Assembly: GCA_046346715.1 (NCBI GenBank)
Contig: JAXMHO010000002.1
Coordinates: 83,059-147,058 of the forward strand
Source: Verrucomicrobiota bacterium
Lineage (GTDB): Bacteria; Verrucomicrobiota; Verrucomicrobiia; Limisphaerales; CAIQOK01
DNA: 64,000 bases
Direction of reading: 5' to 3'
The notes under the pieces are model-generated. The model was not told the origin of the DNA. It was given only the letters and a program-made list of their open reading frames with translations, and did no database searches. The position numbers and the translations under genes were made by a program. This document shows positions 17,977 through 30,468 of the stretch, piece by piece (position 1 is the stretch's first letter; every line of letters starts with the position of its first letter).

Positions 17977-17990
17977 AAAACTTTTTGGTT

Positions 17991-18824
17991 ATGCATTTAA
18001 GTCCTCGTGAACTAGACAAACTGACGCTGCATCAGGCGGGCTCGCTTGCGCAGAAGCGCCTCGCTCGCGGCGTGAAGTTGAATCATCCCGAATCTGTGGC
18101 GCTCATCGCCACCGTGCTGCTGGAATTCATCCGCGATGGCAAGAGTGTCGCCGAGTTGATGAACCTTGGCCGCCAGTTGCTCGGTCGCAATCAAGTCATG
18201 TCCGGCGTGCCGGAGATGATTTACGACGTGCAGGTGGAAGGCACGTTCCCCGACGGCTCGAAGCTCGTCACCGTGCATCATCCCATCGCCAGCGAGAACG
18301 GCGATTTGAAACTCGCGCTCCACGGCAGCTTCCTGCCCGTGCCGGATGTTTCCCTTTTCGTGCCCGGTCTCCATGAACCGGGACGCCTCCTCTCCCCGTC
18401 CCTCTCCTCCATTCCGAATGGAGGAGAGGGTGGCCGCAGGCCTGGAGAGGAGGAGTTCTTCATTCCCGGTGCGACGGAGATCAAGGACGGCGAGATCGAA
18501 CTCAATGTCGGTCGCGCGACGGCGGAGATTCCCGTCACGAATTTCGGCGACCGCCCGATTCAAGTCGGCAGCCACTACCATTTCATCGAGACGAACGCGG
18601 CGTTGCAGTTTGATCGCGGCGCGGCCTACGGCAAACGCCTCGACATCCCGGCGGGCACAGCCGTTCGTTTTGAGCCCGGCGAAACCAAGACCGTGAAGCT
18701 GGTTGAGATCGCCGGCAAGAAAGTCATTCGCGGCGGCAACAACCTCGCGAGCGGCAAAGTTTCGGCGGCGGGCAAGAAAGCCGCCTTGAAGAAGGTGAAA
18801 GCCAAAGGATTTGCAACCACGTGA
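17991..18824 (+). CDS. ureAB: urease gamma-beta fusion subunit
   Basis: ATG 17991. The first ~100 aa are gamma ([39 protein letters not shown]...VTVHHPI). A linker follows. The beta part is [18 protein letters not shown]...[17 protein letters not shown]...[10 protein letters not shown], with a C-terminal [14 protein letters not shown]...KAKGF tail. Confidence 0.9.
18384..18455. repeat. nested palindromic element (CCCTCTCCTCC/GGAGGAGAGGG family) lying in-frame in the ureAB linker
   Basis: Outer arms CCTCCTCTCC (18386-18395) / GGAGAGGAGG (18444-18453). Inner arms CCCTCTCCTCC (18400-18410) / GGAGGAGAGGG (18420-18430), loop ATTCCGAAT. Translated as [25 protein letters not shown]. Confidence 0.75.
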
Positions 18825-18900: not shown

Positions 18901-20616
18901 ATGTCCCACAAAATGAAACGCGCCCATTACGCCGACATGTTCGGCCCAACCACCGGCGACAAAATCCGCCTCGGCGACACGTCGCTCATCGCGGTGGTTG
19001 AGAAGGATTTCACCGTGTATGGCGACGAATGCAAATTCGGTGGCGGTAAAGTTATCCGCGAAGGCATGGGCCAGGCCGCCGGCGTCGGCGCGGCGGGTGC
19101 GCTGGATTGCGTCATCACCAACGCGCTCGTGCTCGATCACACCGGCATCTACAAGGCCGACATCGGCATCAAACACGGACTCATCTCCGGCATCGGGAAG
19201 GCGGGCAATCCCGACATGATGGCGGGGGTGACCAAGGGCATGGTCGTCGGTGTCACCACCGAAGTCATCGCAGGCGAAGGTTTGATTCTCACAGCGGGCG
19301 GTCTCGACACGCATATCCATTTCATCTGCCCGCAACAGGCGCACGAGGCGATTGCAGCGGGGCTCACCACGATGGTCGGCGGCGGCACTGGCCCGGCGGT
19401 CGGCACTTGCGCCACGACCTGCACGCCCGCGCCGAATTACATCCGCGAGATGCTGCGCGCCGTGGATGCGTTGCCGTTGAACTTCGGTTTCACCGGCAAA
19501 GGCAACACCGCCATGCCCGCTGGTCTCGCCGACCAGATCAAAGCCGGTGTCATCGGCCTGAAGCTGCACGAAGACTGGGGCACAACGCCCGCGGCGATTG
19601 ATTGCTGTCTCGGCATCGCGGACAAGCACGACGTGCAGGTGACGATCCACACCGACACGTTGAACGAATCCACGTTCGTCGAAGGCACGATCGCCGCGTT
19701 CAAGGGTCGCACGATCCACACCTATCACAGCGAAGGCGCGGGCGGCGGTCACGCCCCGGACATCATCCGCATCTGCGGCGAACCGAATGTGCTGCCGAGT
19801 TCCACCAACCCGACGCGGCCTTACACGGTCAACACGATTGACGAGCATCTAGACATGCTCATGGTCTGCCATCATCTCGATCCGAACCTCCCGGAGGACG
19901 TGGCGTTTGCCGAAAGTCGCATTCGCGGCGAGACCATCGCGGCGGAAGATATTCTGCATGACATGGGCGCGATCAGCATGATGAGTTCGGATTCGCAGGC
20001 AATGGGCCGCATCGGCGAAGTCATCACGCGCAGTTGGCAGACGGCGGACAAGATGAAGCAGCAACGTGGTCGCTTGCCGGAGGAAAAAGGCGACAACGAC
20101 AACGTCCGCATCAAGCGTTACCTCTCGAAATACACGATCAATCCCGCGCTCGCCCACGGTATGGCGCACGTCATCGGCTCGATTGAAGTCGGCAAGCTCG
20201 CTGATCTCGTGCTGTGGAAGCCCTCCATGTTCGGCGCGAAGCCCGAGATGGTCATCAAAGGCGGGTTCATCGCATGGGCGCAGATGGGCGACCCGAACGC
20301 GAGCATCCCGACGCCGCAACCGGTTTACATGCGCCCGATGTTCGGCGCGTTTGGCCGCGCGACCGGTGCGACGAGCATCGCGTTCGTCAGCCAGCTCGCC
20401 AAGAAGGCGAATGTTGGGAAAGCCTACGGGCTGACCAAGCAGGTCGTCGCCGTGAAAGGCTGCCGCAAAGTTGGCAAGAAGGATTTGAAGTGGAACAACG
20501 CAATGCCGAAGATCACCGTTGATCCGGAGACCTACGAGGTGCGCGCCGATGGTGAATTGCTGACGTGTCAGCCGGCGAAAGTGTTACCCCTCGCGCAAAG
20601 ATATAACCTCTTTTGA
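18901..20616 (+). CDS. ureC: urease alpha subunit
   Basis: The track ORF starts at GTG 18883 inside the hairpin; ATG 18901 gives [27 protein letters not shown]. Motifs [52 protein letters not shown]-terminal LAQRYNLF. Confidence 0.95.
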
Positions 20617-22972: not shown

Positions 22973-25900
22973 TGTCCGTGGAACTGACAGAGTCGCTGCT
23001 GAGCAAGGCCGCCGGCTGGGAGGTCATGAAGCGCGCCCGCGCCTATCTCGAACAGGGCCAGGTGCTGAGTTCGCTGTGGGCGCCGCCGCTGCTGCGCGGG
23101 GTGGTGCAGTCAGATGGCGTCTCGTTCCGGGCCTCGATGGTCATCCACAACGGCATTGATATTGAAAATCTTTGCACCTGCCGCGATGCCCGGCAGTGGG
23201 GAAAAATATGCGCGCATGGCGTCGCCGTCGGATTGCACTGGCTGAAGGCGCAAAATCCGGAAGCACCCACGAAGGAGCGCGGAATTCATTCCGCCAACAA
23301 GGGCATTCAAGCCAACTCGCGGACTGAAGTCCGCGCTCCAAAGAAAACTCCTTCCCTGCTCCGCTCCGAGTCCGGCGAACCTGCCGAACTGTTCATCCTC
23401 CTGCCGCCGAATCTCGACCAGGCGGCGGCGCGCGGCAAGGTCATGCTGGTGCTGGAAGCCAAAGCCAGCGGCGGACGAATGCCGTTGAACGCGCTGCCGA
23501 AGGGTCGCACGTTCGTCTTTTCCCAGCAGGACAATCTGCTTCTGGATGCCTTGGAAAAGCTGACCGACGGCGAGACTCCGGCGGTGCTTCAACTCGACAC
23601 TCAAGAGTTCGCCACCCTCCTGCCGATGCTGGTGGGACACCCGAACATCACGCTCGGCAAAAGCGCGTCGGTGACCGTGGCCAACCAGCCGGCGTCACTG
23701 CCGCTGCGCGCGACGTTGGAATCAAACGGCGAAATCACCATGGCCATCAGGGGAAATGCCGCAGCGCTGCCGCTCGTCGGCAACTGGCTCTGGCGCGACC
23801 AAACTTTCTCGCCGCTCGCCCTGCCCTTGGCGTTGCAGGAAGTGCTGCGCGGACCTTTGCGCATTTCCCGGATGCAGGTGCCGCAGTTTCTCAGCCAGCA
23901 ATGGCCGCAGTTGCTGTCCTCCGGAAGCGTGGAGGCGAACTTCAAGCTGGAGGACTTCTTGCTTGAACCGCAGGCACCGCGCTTTCTGCTCGAACTCAAG
24001 GGCGGTCTCGCCCAGCTCACGGCGCGACTCCAATGCGCTTACGGTGCGCGCATCATGACGCTCGGTGTGACTTCCACCGACGAAGGCGTCTGGCTGCCGG
24101 ATCCGGAATCGCCCACGCGCTATTCGACCCGCGACGTCGGGGCCGAACGCGCCGCGCTGGCAAGACTGCAACGCCAGGGTTTCTCCGCGCCCGACAGCCA
24201 GGGAAAGCTTTTGCTCGCCGGACAAAATGCGGTGCTGAACTTTCTCGCCCGGGAGTTCACCAGGCTCCAGCGCGAATGGAGTGTGACGCTCGACGAGCAG
24301 TTGGAAAACCGCACGTTGAAAAACATCGAGCGCGTTGAACCTGAATTTCAAATCACCCCGTCGGGGGTGCAGTGGTTTGACCTGGGCGTCGTCTTTGCCG
24401 CCAGCAGCGGCGAGAAATTTTCCCCAACGGACATTCAGCGGCTGCTGTTGTCGGGACAAAGCCACACGCGCCTGAAAAACGGCAAGACGGCCGTCATCGA
24501 CACCGGCGCGGTGGAGGAGCTTCAGGAGGTTTTGCTCGACTGCGCCCCGCAGCAGCATGCCTCGGGCTACCGGCTGAATCAGGCGCAGGCGGGATTTCTC
24601 GACGCCACGCTGCGCCAGCAGGGCGGCTGGAAAGTGGAGGCGCCGACCGCCTGGAATGAACGCGCGGCCAAACAGCGCGGCGACACGAAGCTCGACTGTC
24701 CGCCGCTGGGTCCGTTGGAAAACGTCCTGCGGCCATACCAGAAACACGGCGTCGCGTGGCTGCATTTTCTCCGCGAGAACGGCTTTGGCGGCATCCTCGC
24801 GGACGAAATGGGGCTGGGAAAAACCCTGCAGGCGCTGGCATTTCTAAACCTGTGGCGGCAGGCATCCCTGCCTGCCGTAGAGCTGGGCTTCCAGCCCGGC
24901 GGAAAGGACGCGGACATTTCAAGCACGGAAGCAAATCCGAACGCCGGCCCTGGCGGCAGGATGCCGCCCTCTACGGCAGGCAAGGATGCCCGCCGCTACG
25001 CGCCGCACCTGATCGTTTGTCCCACCAGCCTGGTTTTCAACTGGGTGGCCGAGGCAAAGAAGTTCACGCCCGATTTGAAAGTGCTCGCGCTGCACGGCCC
25101 CGACCGACACGCCTGGTTCGACCAGATTGCCACAAGCAACATCATTGTGACGAGTTACGCGCTCATCCGGCGCGACGCCGAGAAGTATCGCGGGGTGGAA
25201 TTCGACACCGTGGTGCTCGACGAGGCGCAGCACATCAAGAACCGTCAGACGCAAAACGCGCAGGCGGTCAAGGCGGTGAAGGCAAAGCACCGCCTGGTGC
25301 TGACCGGGACGCCGCTGGAAAACTCCGTGCTCGATCTCTGGTCCATCTTCGACTTCCTCATGCCGGGCTATCTGGGCACGGCGAAGGATTTTCGCGAGCG
25401 CTACGAGCTGCCCATCGCTAAGGAAAAGAACGCCGAGGCGCAGGCACGGCTCGCCCGGCGGCTTCGGCCTTTCATGCTGCGGCGGCTGAAGAAGGAGGTG
25501 GCGGCCGATTTGCCGGCGAAAATTGAGCAGGTGTCATTCTGTGAGCTCACGCCGGATCAACGCGGCGTTTACCAGCAAATCCTCGAAGCAACGCGCAAGG
25601 AAGTCCTTGACGCCGTCGGCGCGCAGGGTCTGGCCAAGAGCCGGATGGTGGTGCTGAGCGCGCTGCTGCGGCTGCGGCAGATTTGCTGCGACCTGCGGTT
25701 GCTCAAACTCACCAAGCAAAGTGATGGAGAGGCGGAGACTGGAGCTGCCGCGGAAATATCCAATCAACCGGGCGCTTCCGCCTCCCTCTCCTCCCCCAGA
25801 GGAGGAGAGGGCGGGGCGAGGGAGTCAGCAAGCACGTCTTCGAGTTCGTCCGGCAAGCTGGAGTTGTTCAGCGAATTATTGGAAGAAGTCATTGATGGCG

Positions 25901-29576: not shown

Positions 29577-29696
29577 TCCGCCTCCCTCTCCTCCTCAAAA
29601 GGAGGAGAGGGTCGGGGTGAGGAGGCATTCTTTTTTTCAAGTGGAGCTCCCCTCACCCCAGCCCTCTCCCCGCTTAGACGGGGAGAGGGAGGAGGT
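29577..29696. repeat. two adjacent palindromic elements in the trmL-truA spacer
   Basis: TCCGCCTCCCTCTCCTCC-TCAAAA-GGAGGAGAGGGTCGGGGTGAGGAGG (29577-25) and CCCTCTCCCC-GCTTAGAC-GGGGAGAGGG-AGGAGG (29662-29695). The second contains the last 8 codons and the stop of truA. Confidence 0.8.
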
Positions 29697-30468
29697 CTCT
29701 GGGACACTTTCGCCTTCTTGGATTTGTAAAAAACTTTTGCAGCACCAGACCGTGGGCCGGCGCGCTCATGCCGCCGCGCCGGTCCTTCTTGGCGAGCATG
29801 GCCTTCACGGCCTCCGGCGGAAACCGGCCAAAACCAATCTGCACCAGCGTCCCGACAATGCCCCGGCACATCCGGTAAAGAAATCCCTCGCCCTCGATGA
29901 TGAAGGTGAACAGGCAGCCGCTTTTCTTGATGTCGCAGCGCGTCAATCGGCGCACGGTGGTTCCCGGTTCGTAGTCGGTCTTGGCGGTGAAGGACTGGAA
30001 GTCGTGTTCGCCCGGAAAGTGTTTGGCCGCCGCCCGCATCTTGGCGAGGTCGAGCTGGCGCGGCATGTGCCACGCCGTCTTTTGCAGCAGCGGATTCATC
30101 GCGTGATGGCTCCAGACGTAATACCGGTATTGCTTGCCGCTCGCGTGAAAGCGGGCGTGAAAATCTTTTGGCACGCGCGCTGACGCCAGCACCCGGATGT
30201 CGTCGGGCAGCCAGGCGTTGAGGGCGAGGGCGAGTTTGCGGGCGGGAACCTTCGCCTCCGTGCGCGGCACTTCAAAATGCGCCGCCATGCCCAGGGCATG
30301 GACGCCCGTGTCCGTGCGGCTGGAACTGTGCAACCGCGGCGCGCTCGGAAAGAGCTTCGCCAGCGCGCCCTCGACCTTTTCCTGCACGCCGGAGCCGATC
30401 TTCTGCAACTGCCAGCCGTGATAGGCCGAGCCGTCGTAGGCGAGGGTGAGTTTGAATTTGACGTTCAC
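29674..30468 (-). CDS. truA: tRNA pseudouridine(38-40) synthase
   Basis: 264 aa. KLTLAYDGSAYHGWQLQ, RTDTGVHA catalytic Asp motif. Confidence 0.9.
   Translation of the reverse strand: MNVKFKLTLAYDGSAYHGWQLQKIGSGVQEKVEGALAKLFPSAPRLHSSSRTDTGVHALGMAAHFEVPRTEAKVPARKLALALNAWLPDDIRVLASARVPKDFHARFHASGKQYRYYVWSHHAMNPLLQKTAWHMPRQLDLAKMRAAAKHFPGEHDFQSFTAKTDYEPGTTVRRLTRCDIKKSGCLFTFIIEGEGFLYRMCRGIVGTLVQIGFGRFPPEAVKAMLAKKDRRGGMSAPAHGLVLQKFFTNPRRRKCPRDLLPLPV

Follow-up and report, generated by a model that had tools for sequence, protein, structure and literature searches.

A BoxC-like palindromic unit in the linker of a fused urease gamma-beta gene of a Verrucomicrobiota bacterium, and a DUF559 nuclease as its candidate partner

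The window analyzed here is a stretch of 64,000 nucleotides (G000:C12:83059-147058) from a 2.9-Mb, 61% G+C, 68%-complete assembly of a Verrucomicrobiota bacterium (G000). It contains a ureAB gene whose product has homologues with the source labels Verrucomicrobia, Verrucomicrobiales or Verrucomicrobiae, and in which Pfam places Urease_gamma (PF00547) at residues 3-101 and Urease_beta (PF00699) at residues 161-258. Between the two domains lies a palindromic block, the parts of which are as follows.

17985..18824, plus strand: ureAB, the fused urease gamma-beta subunit gene that hosts the insert (open reading frame list, Pfam).
18380..18461, plus strand: inserted block of 81 nt (27 codons) in the gamma-beta linker, absent from eight fused orthologues and from homologue P0018; its boundaries are uncertain by about 2 nt.
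18386..18397, plus strand: left flank CCTCCTCTCCCC, a mirror repeat of the pyrimidine arm.
18400..18430, no strand assigned: central hairpin, a perfect 15-bp palindrome made of the pyrimidine arm CCCTCTCCTCCATTC, a 1-nt center (c) and the purine arm GAATGGAGGAGAGGG.
18432..18442, plus strand: small hairpin GGCC-GCA-GGCC, between the central hairpin and the right flank, seen in the RNA fold and kept in homologues P0002, P0003 and P0004.
18444..18455, plus strand: right flank GGAGAGGAGGAG, where the purine third strand occurs again, this time on the plus strand.

First-pass annotation of this DNA had described a nested palindrome in the linker, and we confirmed it over positions 18383-18456, with perfect inner arms of 15 nt (18400-18414 and 18416-18430) and outer arms of 13 nt (18383-18395 and 18444-18456) that are 92% complementary. 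The small GGCC-GCA-GGCC hairpin (18432-18442) was absent from that description. The linker is indeed extended, by 27 residues (81 nt) rather than the approximately 25 first estimated; these run Pro/Ser/Leu and then Gly/Glu/Arg in frame with the gene, and from this conservation of frame we infer that the insert is read through by the ribosome. Folded as RNA, a 91-nt stretch over the block reached -56.3 kcal/mol (z = -5.9), and its minus strand folded as DNA reached -29.6 kcal/mol (z = -4.9). On the minus strand, the left flank becomes GGGGAGAGGAGG, which corresponds to the purine "third strand" in the triplex motif considered below, and the unit as a whole reads …GGAGGAGAGGG AC GGGGAGAGGAGG (pattern match G000:C12:101447-101488, minus strand). 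The ureAB unit is thus flanked on both sides, and its right flank covaries with the hairpin arms in P0004. An AlphaFold2 model of UreAB based on 21 close homologues was poor (mean pLDDT 45.7, with residues 131-170 the lowest) and was given no weight.

To place the block relative to the fusion, orthologous joints were compared. All eight fused ureAB orthologues (same order, one of them from the same genus) lacked the 27 codons at the gamma-beta joint, and many close UreAB homologues of 250-253 aa had no insert and read ...FAPAVAEPIPGATE... at this point (P0014, P0018, and P0033). Among these, P0018 represents an empty allele with 89% DNA identity over the gene, reading GAGCCG-ATCCCCGG where the window has GAACCG-(81 nt)-ATTCCCGG (hyphens mark the joint); the consensus empty site is GA(G/A)CCG-AT(C/T)CCCGG. 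Two further homologues, P0002 and P0003, which are 88% identical at the nucleotide level, come from independent assemblies and carry the same insert at the same place. Neither a target-site duplication nor conserved outer termini were seen at the ureAB junctions (GAACCG-…-ATTCCC) or at those of a second copy in an SNF2 helicase gene. Judged by these alignments with the eight orthologues and P0018, the block is a true in-frame insertion, as had been proposed. Since these relatives are fused without the 27 codons, the same alignments place the gamma-beta fusion before the insert, with the element only exploiting an existing linker. The suggestion that the insert had contributed to the fusion was rejected, the fusion being present without it in all relatives examined, that is, in the eight orthologues and in many homologues of about 250 aa. 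It had also been considered that the linker might be conserved as a peptide on DNA that is not palindromic; the relatives that share the peptide share the palindromic DNA as well. Within the insert, a 51-nt core was identical in the window, P0002 and P0003, while the rest of the gene differed by 12-13.6% (Fisher p = 0.0008-0.0016). A purely neutral passenger does not predict this identity, which might instead reflect DNA symmetry under constraint, a palindrome correcting itself on its own template, or other copies acting as donors in gene conversion.

The same linker has received other DNA. Of 27 close UreAB homologues that were read, three were empty, one more differed only at its C terminus and 23 had a linker insert. 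Three of these inserts were that of the window, two (P0004 and P0006) had the same flanks around another hairpin and 18 belonged to at least five other kinds, giving at least six kinds in all; the others included short SPSPGGEGRGEG and LPRPVGRGEGRGEG types as well as two other palindrome families. About 45 of the best 120 UreAB clusters had a length of at least 265 aa. A comparable site was found in the Dus gene, which holds a doublet of units in G000, an unrelated palindrome at the same spot in G015 and nothing in three other genomes. The UreAB linker is therefore an insertion hotspot, and selection for permissive sites, rather than function, explains where the insert lies.

The hairpin core CCCTCTCCTCC has six matches in the window (1.34 expected from shuffles), which correspond to three palindromes at 18400, 25784 and 29584. 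The ureAB palindrome had been taken for a separate, second family; by its letters and layout, it is instead a copy of the BoxC/PIT/TMECO "intrastrand triplex motif" repeat, of the B-half type, that is, one half of the A+B inverted doublets known from E. coli and present in many phyla. The full unit can be written CCTC(A/T)CCCC-NN-CCCTCTCC…GGAGAGGG, or its complement. One complete doublet lies in an intergenic spacer of the window, with the architecture of the inverted type A and type B pairs of E. coli.

29584..29689, no strand assigned: intergenic A+B doublet, made of a B hairpin (29584-29611), GGGGTGAGGAGG (29614-29625), a spacer, CCCCTCACCCC (29649-29659) and an A hairpin (29662-29689).

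The published motif comprises a hairpin and a third block of purines, and both were found at ureAB. The hairpin core CCCTCNCC(C) / (G)GGNGAGGG is present at 18400-18430 as CCCTCTCCTCC…GGAGGAGAGGG, and the G-rich block mirroring the purine arm, for which the motif provides 1-5 nt after that arm (GGGNGAGG…), follows on the minus strand as GGGGAGAGGAGG. Measured against the strict 9-nt form CCCTCNCCC, the ureAB unit is a variant, mismatched at position 9 (T). The published loop of 3-6 nt between 9-nt arms was not found, the arms here being 11-15 nt long and the A-type loops about 10 nt between 9-nt arms; because the stems are longer here, this mismatch is one of degree only. Rfam searches at gathering thresholds assigned no family to any copy. 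The units thus share with the E. coli triplex motif the core letters CCCTCTCC ... GGAGAGGG together with GGGGTGAGG, the three-block design in which the A of the purine arm faces T (or A), the A+B inverted pairing and a patchy presence between close relatives. They differ in that the ureAB type has arms of 11-12 nt (…TCC / GGA… / …AGG) instead of 9, with longer stems and with loops beyond N3-6, and in that the ureAB copy carries a flank on both sides. In E. coli K-12, 23 copies have been described as "always intergenic," including five inverted A+B pairs; a single strand of the motif forms a purine-motif triplex in vitro that was not detected in vivo, and neither promoter or terminator activity nor a link to mobile elements was found (Holder 2015, PMC4666352). 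That work found no partner gene either, and a second paper interpreted the same motifs as G-quadruplex/hairpin switches.

The three-block design could be followed in the letters themselves: read in reverse order, the flank repeats the purine arm, allowing T or A where the arm has A. When the three letters extending the arm were compared with the three extending the flank, 73 of 87 matched as mirror images in G000, compared with 50.3 ± 4.1 after shuffling, and 378 of 570 matched at loci elsewhere, compared with 278.6 ± 8.0. None of 2000 shuffles reached either value, although the copies are related and their independence is accordingly overstated. Two single observations are more telling than these statistics. 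At ureAB, P0004 differs from the window by a coordinated set of changes, from CCTCC to CCCCC in the pyrimidine arm, from GGAGG to GGGGG in the purine arm and from AGGAGG to AGGGGG in both flanks, and one Dehalococcoidia locus has the same three-part design in other letters (CTCCCTCCC / GGGAGGGAG / GAGGGTGGG).

Nor is the motif confined to the three sites in the window. A looser search of the G000 assembly returned 33 hairpins and 46 full units at about 29 loci, with 12 exact B-type palindromes. Inverted doublets made up 17 of the approximately 29 loci, and 14 of these 17 paired a CCCC-type (A) with a TCC-type (B) half across a spacer of 15-30 nt. In a scan for its exact pattern, the unit turned up on more than 120 contigs among the matches listed; these came from Pseudomonadota, Verrucomicrobiota, Planctomycetota, Acidobacteriota, Chloroflexota, Myxococcota, Bacteroidota, Armatimonadota and Melainabacteria. 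Units numbered thousands in related genomes, where the reversed pattern, used as a control, gave close to zero matches. Their spread is patchy, with 36 pattern-matched units in G000 versus none in the same-genus genome G001.

We also analyzed how many of these loci lie within genes, using a crude codon-usage gene model that was trained on the assembly and called 90% of it coding. By this model, nine of the approximately 29 loci were mid-gene, with a positive coding score and a single frame on both sides. About a third of the loci are hence in frame inside genes here, whereas the E. coli copies were "always intergenic." The nine hosts were UreAB, SNF2, Dus, an AMP-ligase-like protein, an aminotransferase, a family-21 glycosyltransferase (GT21), an NTP-transferase and two proteins without a Pfam match, and in all but these last two, Pfam domains were split by the insert or flanked it. 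Comparison with orthologues was made for four of the nine loci, and all four were clean in-frame indels, listed here with the window copies first.

UreAB: insert of 81 nt, as given above.
25753..25842, plus strand: SNF2 helicase, 90-nt in-frame insertion between the SNF2 domain and Helicase_C, absent from the orthologues in G040, G001 and G011.
Dus: insert of about 130 nt.
AMP-ligase: insert of 135 nt.

The SNF2 copy, which had also been reported as in frame, contains a hairpin at 25784-25811 followed by a degenerate third strand, GGGGCGAGGGAG, at 25813-25824. Since the arms are purely pyrimidine or purely purine, the genetic code allows no stop codon in them in any of the six frames. Only two of the three phases are used: among 12 intragenic hairpins, seven were read as (L)SS…GGEG, five as PSP(P)…EERE and none as PLL…RRG, which suggests mild selection on the peptide. 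In the literature searched, no report of intragenic BoxC-type units was found; the ureAB element is a variant of a known repeat, and it is the in-gene behavior that has not been reported for BoxC there.

The copy most similar to the ureAB insert points to a possible partner. The best genomic match, 43 of 45 positions at C48:76621-76665, directly adjoins the only DUF559 gene of the assembly (C48:76790-77110, E = 1.1e-32), the product of which matches the Vsr-like structure 3hrl (E = 3.3e-22). This gene has a further unit, in inverted orientation, on its opposite side and so takes the place of the doublet "spacer" in a cassette spanning C48:76621-77164. The ureAB copy itself is a solo unit and not a cassette. 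A search extended to 100 further genomes of the order showed a unit within 300 nt at 24 of the best 30 DUF559 loci, one of which is the G000 locus itself. When the G000 locus was left out, the density of units at the remaining 29 was 3.09 per kb within 300 nt of the gene versus 0.28 per kb farther away, an 11-fold difference, and the density over the whole of G000 was about 0.016 per kb. The arrangement recurred in five unrelated genomes (an Enterobacteriaceae isolate, Pseudomonas, Azospirillum lipoferum, Dyella marensis and a Dehalococcoidia metagenome-assembled genome), where seven of eight DUF559 genes were flanked by units. In E. coli K-12, the end of the DUF559 gene ycjD falls within a BoxC-like hairpin, a TMECO copy follows about 165 nt downstream, and the gene neighbors fabI/envM, the site of the first BoxC description.

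At the level of genomes, all 32 of the 101 analyzed that encode a small DUF559 protein had units (median 40.5 pattern matches), and of the 69 without one, 31 had no units (median 1). For this association, Fisher p was 4.6e-7 and Mann-Whitney p was 1.8e-8, in statistics that ignore relatedness. The same-genus genome G001 has neither units nor DUF559. Of 120 sampled unit loci from many phyla that were searched with one DUF559 protein as the query, 117 had no such gene nearby and three did, in each case directly beside a unit. No paper tying DUF559 to BoxC or to these repeats was found in the literature searched.

One DUF559 subtype extends the in-frame behavior from the unit to the gene. It has the N-terminal residues YRGG..SGLVERARELR, the C-terminal LPSTSGRGAGGEG and no start codon of its own; HsdR and HsdM genes host it in their own reading frame, with unit-encoded peptides on either side. 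At one HsdR site, three orthologues were found in three states, namely empty (L164), with a solo unit (L163) and with unit-DUF559-unit (L183); at a second HsdR site, two orthologues had the cassette and a third had nothing. Presence and absence of this kind would be the pattern expected from a mobile family with autonomous and gene-less members, whichever way the states convert and whether or not DUF559 is the agent.

The units might spread independently of DUF559, by replication slippage, by template switching at the hairpin or by recombination, with DUF559 a separate selfish gene that homes into pre-existing units recognized by its nuclease. Several assemblies are rich in units (65-212) yet encode no small DUF559 protein, the three-state HsdR site is accounted for equally well by homing into a solo unit and by decay to one, and the double-flanked ureAB copy resembles a fold-back product. 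Such a history nevertheless leaves several observations without an obvious place, since no sampled genome has a small DUF559 gene without units, the gene sits exactly in the spacer of the inverted doublet, as though a doublet were a cassette minus its gene, and no other unit is closer to the ureAB copy than the one adjoining DUF559. We regard this alternative as rather unlikely, though as the most probable of the rivals.

A role in urease itself was also weighed, in which the hairpin would be kept for expression or assembly of the enzyme, either as a ribosome-pausing mRNA structure between the two modules or because a longer linker is needed. The very stable fold would suit such a role, as would the core that stayed identical in three lineages amid about 12% divergence at other sites of the gene, and the 22-residue insert peptide is likewise conserved in P0002 and P0003. 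Yet homologues that are 84-86% identical have no insert, or have one of at least five unrelated inserts at the same place; the same unit occurs in eight unrelated genes and at about 20 intergenic sites; and what is conserved is the symmetry of the DNA, which is not specific to urease. We consider a urease role unlikely.

The inverted doublets resemble REPINs, intragenic REPs have been published for a verrucomicrobium (PMC3733652) and the genome encodes a Y1_Tnp protein (C32:10562-10903, E = 1.2e-20), all of which would suit ordinary REP/REPIN elements that a RAYT (an IS200/IS605-type Y1 transposase) mobilizes, with DUF559 a bystander. The one clear Y1 gene, however, is flanked by a different, GTAG-type repeat, a family that is also present in G000 and is separate from the triplex-motif units, and no such unit lies within 1.5 kb of it. 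Nor do the units share a GTAG or CGTC tag: depending on the copy, the hairpin adjoins GG, GA, AG, AA, AC or GT. It is beside DUF559 genes that the units are enriched. This makes movement by a RAYT very unlikely. Finally, linkers are often rich in Pro, Ser and Gly, but a native linker that is palindromic by chance, or an assembly artifact, is hardly credible for a block with a sharp 81-nt presence or absence relative to 89%-identical alleles, a 43/45 match to a noncoding copy elsewhere in the genome and an occurrence in three independent assemblies.

Several known systems resemble the units in part. Rickettsia palindromic elements are described, in the citing article, as inserted in frame and read through in surface or linker regions of functional proteins (Ogata et al. 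2000, cited in PMC3733652), and the likeness noted in the first-pass annotation holds at the level of this described behavior. RPE-1 differs in being longer and in coming from an AT-rich, obligately intracellular genome, and for these elements neither a purine/pyrimidine strand asymmetry nor a mirror flank is described. The same annotation had stressed how distant the present lineage is; the lineage is a different one, but in-frame palindromes have already been published in Verrucomicrobia as well as in Rickettsia, as intragenic GTAG/CGTC REPs that are most numerous in Opitutus terrae (Di Nocera, De Gregorio & Rocco 2013, PMC3733652). Those REPs belong to the same phylum, occur as singles and dimers encoding 20-30 residues in known genes and were argued to be neutral in linkers and loops, but they form a separate family, tied to RAYTs and marked by a conserved tetranucleotide tag. 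Miniature inverted-repeat transposable elements (Coxiella QMITEs, PMC5896051; reviewed in PMC3184786 and PMC10969869) are likewise short and non-autonomous, have inverted symmetry and can extend or interrupt open reading frames, some of them adding peptides to proteins; the triplex-motif units differ in having no IS terminal inverted repeats and no transposase relative, and no IS with these ends and no duplication at the ureAB junctions was found. Among nucleases, DUF559 of G000 belongs to the PD-(D/E)xK clade of Vsr and of the group I intron homing endonuclease I-Bth0305I (PDB 3r3p; DUF559 structure 3hrl, PMC3424549). It differs from these Vsr-like homing endonucleases in lying in no intron or intein and in being bracketed by triplex-motif hairpins, and in HsdR and HsdM it is an internal domain in the frame of its host, without a splicing element.

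Our preferred reading, which we hold to be likely as a whole, is that the ureAB block is a BoxC-type insertion into a pre-existing linker, tolerated there as a passenger, and that its unit derives from a DUF559 cassette. A unit in which a loop joins a pyrimidine arm to a purine arm, and a purine flank mirrors the latter, inserted into the disordered UreAB linker, where it is most likely a passenger without a role in urease. On this reading, it persists because its arms are free of stop codons, its length is a multiple of three and the linker tolerates additional flexible residues. A solo unit of this kind may descend, as a non-autonomous form, from a small selfish cassette that has a gene for a DUF559 (Vsr-like PD-(D/E)xK) nuclease between two units in inverted orientation, and this nuclease may act on the hairpin- or triplex-forming ends and copy units to new sites. 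For DUF559 as the mobilizing agent, the chances appear to us about even. Equally balanced, in our judgment, is the broader proposal that one widespread selfish element comprises both the BoxC repeats and the DUF559 nucleases, with doublets and solo units as its gene-less derivatives and with stop-free ends that may let these derivatives as well as the complete cassette live in frame, up to a whole nuclease domain within HsdR or HsdM.

To our knowledge, BoxC/PIT/TMECO repeats have been catalogued since the 1990s as strictly intergenic elements with no known origin, partner enzyme or function. The ureAB locus adds a clean filled versus empty site within an enzyme gene, in a genome where a third of the loci lie in genes. 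Inserts of this sort account for many odd "PSPxPSP…GEGxGEG" stretches, and for differences in length, among otherwise conserved proteins, and they are not to be annotated as functional linkers. The bracketing of DUF559, which holds in this Verrucomicrobiota order, in Pseudomonadota, in Chloroflexota and at ycjD of E. coli, offers a testable candidate for the missing enzyme. If the two are indeed parts of one element, a 30-year-old orphan repeat and an orphan nuclease family would have a common explanation, and mobile DNA would have a new way to persist inside genes without introns or inteins.

The core of the in-frame insert that lengthens the ureAB gamma-beta linker (51 nt; window 18386-18436) was 100% identical among the window and the ureAB loci of two other lineages (L195 and L196), whereas 12-13.6% of sites differed over the rest of ureAB in these three lineages (Fisher p about 0.001 against the core). 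Candidate causes of this identity are constraint, self-correction and gene conversion. Within the urease alpha-subunit gene, an antisense match to an sRNA family was also recorded:

Window 19054-19347, minus strand: 5_ureB_sRNA match (Rfam RF02514), 94.9 bits

This antisense sRNA family is one of Helicobacter. The match is probably due to conservation of the coding sequence and not to a genuine sRNA.

Other palindromes were found in the window. The SNF2 gene carries a second palindromic insert (…GGRMPPSTAGKDARRY…; window about 24850-25000, residues about 660-700), which lies upstream of the triplex-motif copy in the same gene and is unlike it. An A-type hairpin (window 29662-29689) extends into the 3' end of a gene on the minus strand (29674-30468), whose stop codon therefore falls within the repeat. 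Elsewhere in the source assembly, G000, a loop of the tRNA-dihydrouridine synthase Dus holds a triplex-motif doublet (C1:134207-134299). The same loop contains an unrelated GGCAGGCGTCCTCGCCTGCC-type palindrome instead in G015 (L146), and the site is empty in G001, G006 and G011, all comparison genomes of the same order.

The Vsr-like DUF559 nuclease was also found as a complete in-frame domain within the type I restriction genes hsdR and hsdM (L157, L158, L159, L161, L163, L164 and L183), where it has no start codon of its own and is bordered on both sides by repeat-encoded peptides; the HsdR proteins with an internal DUF559 additionally carry up to three solo repeat inserts. In a Dehalococcoidia MAG (L192, L194), the repeats flanking DUF559 genes form a variant triplet, CTCCCTCCC / GGGAGGGAG / GAGGGTGGG, which shares the hairpin-plus-mirror-flank design of the triplex-motif unit but differs from it in its letters; in L194, the two types of unit are nested. 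Downstream of ycjD in E. coli K-12 (L156, 1830-1965), roughly 30 nt of the ycjD 3' end (…aatattctccagcaccgtctcc…) recur about 100 nt downstream, between ycjD and the TMECO copy, in what looks like the remnant of a second cassette.

A distinct repeat system is also present within G000, consisting of GGGTAGC…-type REP hairpins together with a Y1 transposase:

G000 C32:10562-10903 (L199): Y1 (IS200/RAYT-like) transposase gene, with GGGTAGC…-type REP hairpins at both flanks

As for the triplex-motif units, their pattern was matched 36 times in G000, which has a single DUF559 gene, while none of either was found in G001, a genome of the same genus that is 97% complete. This contrast suggests that the whole system of units and DUF559 was recently gained or lost.
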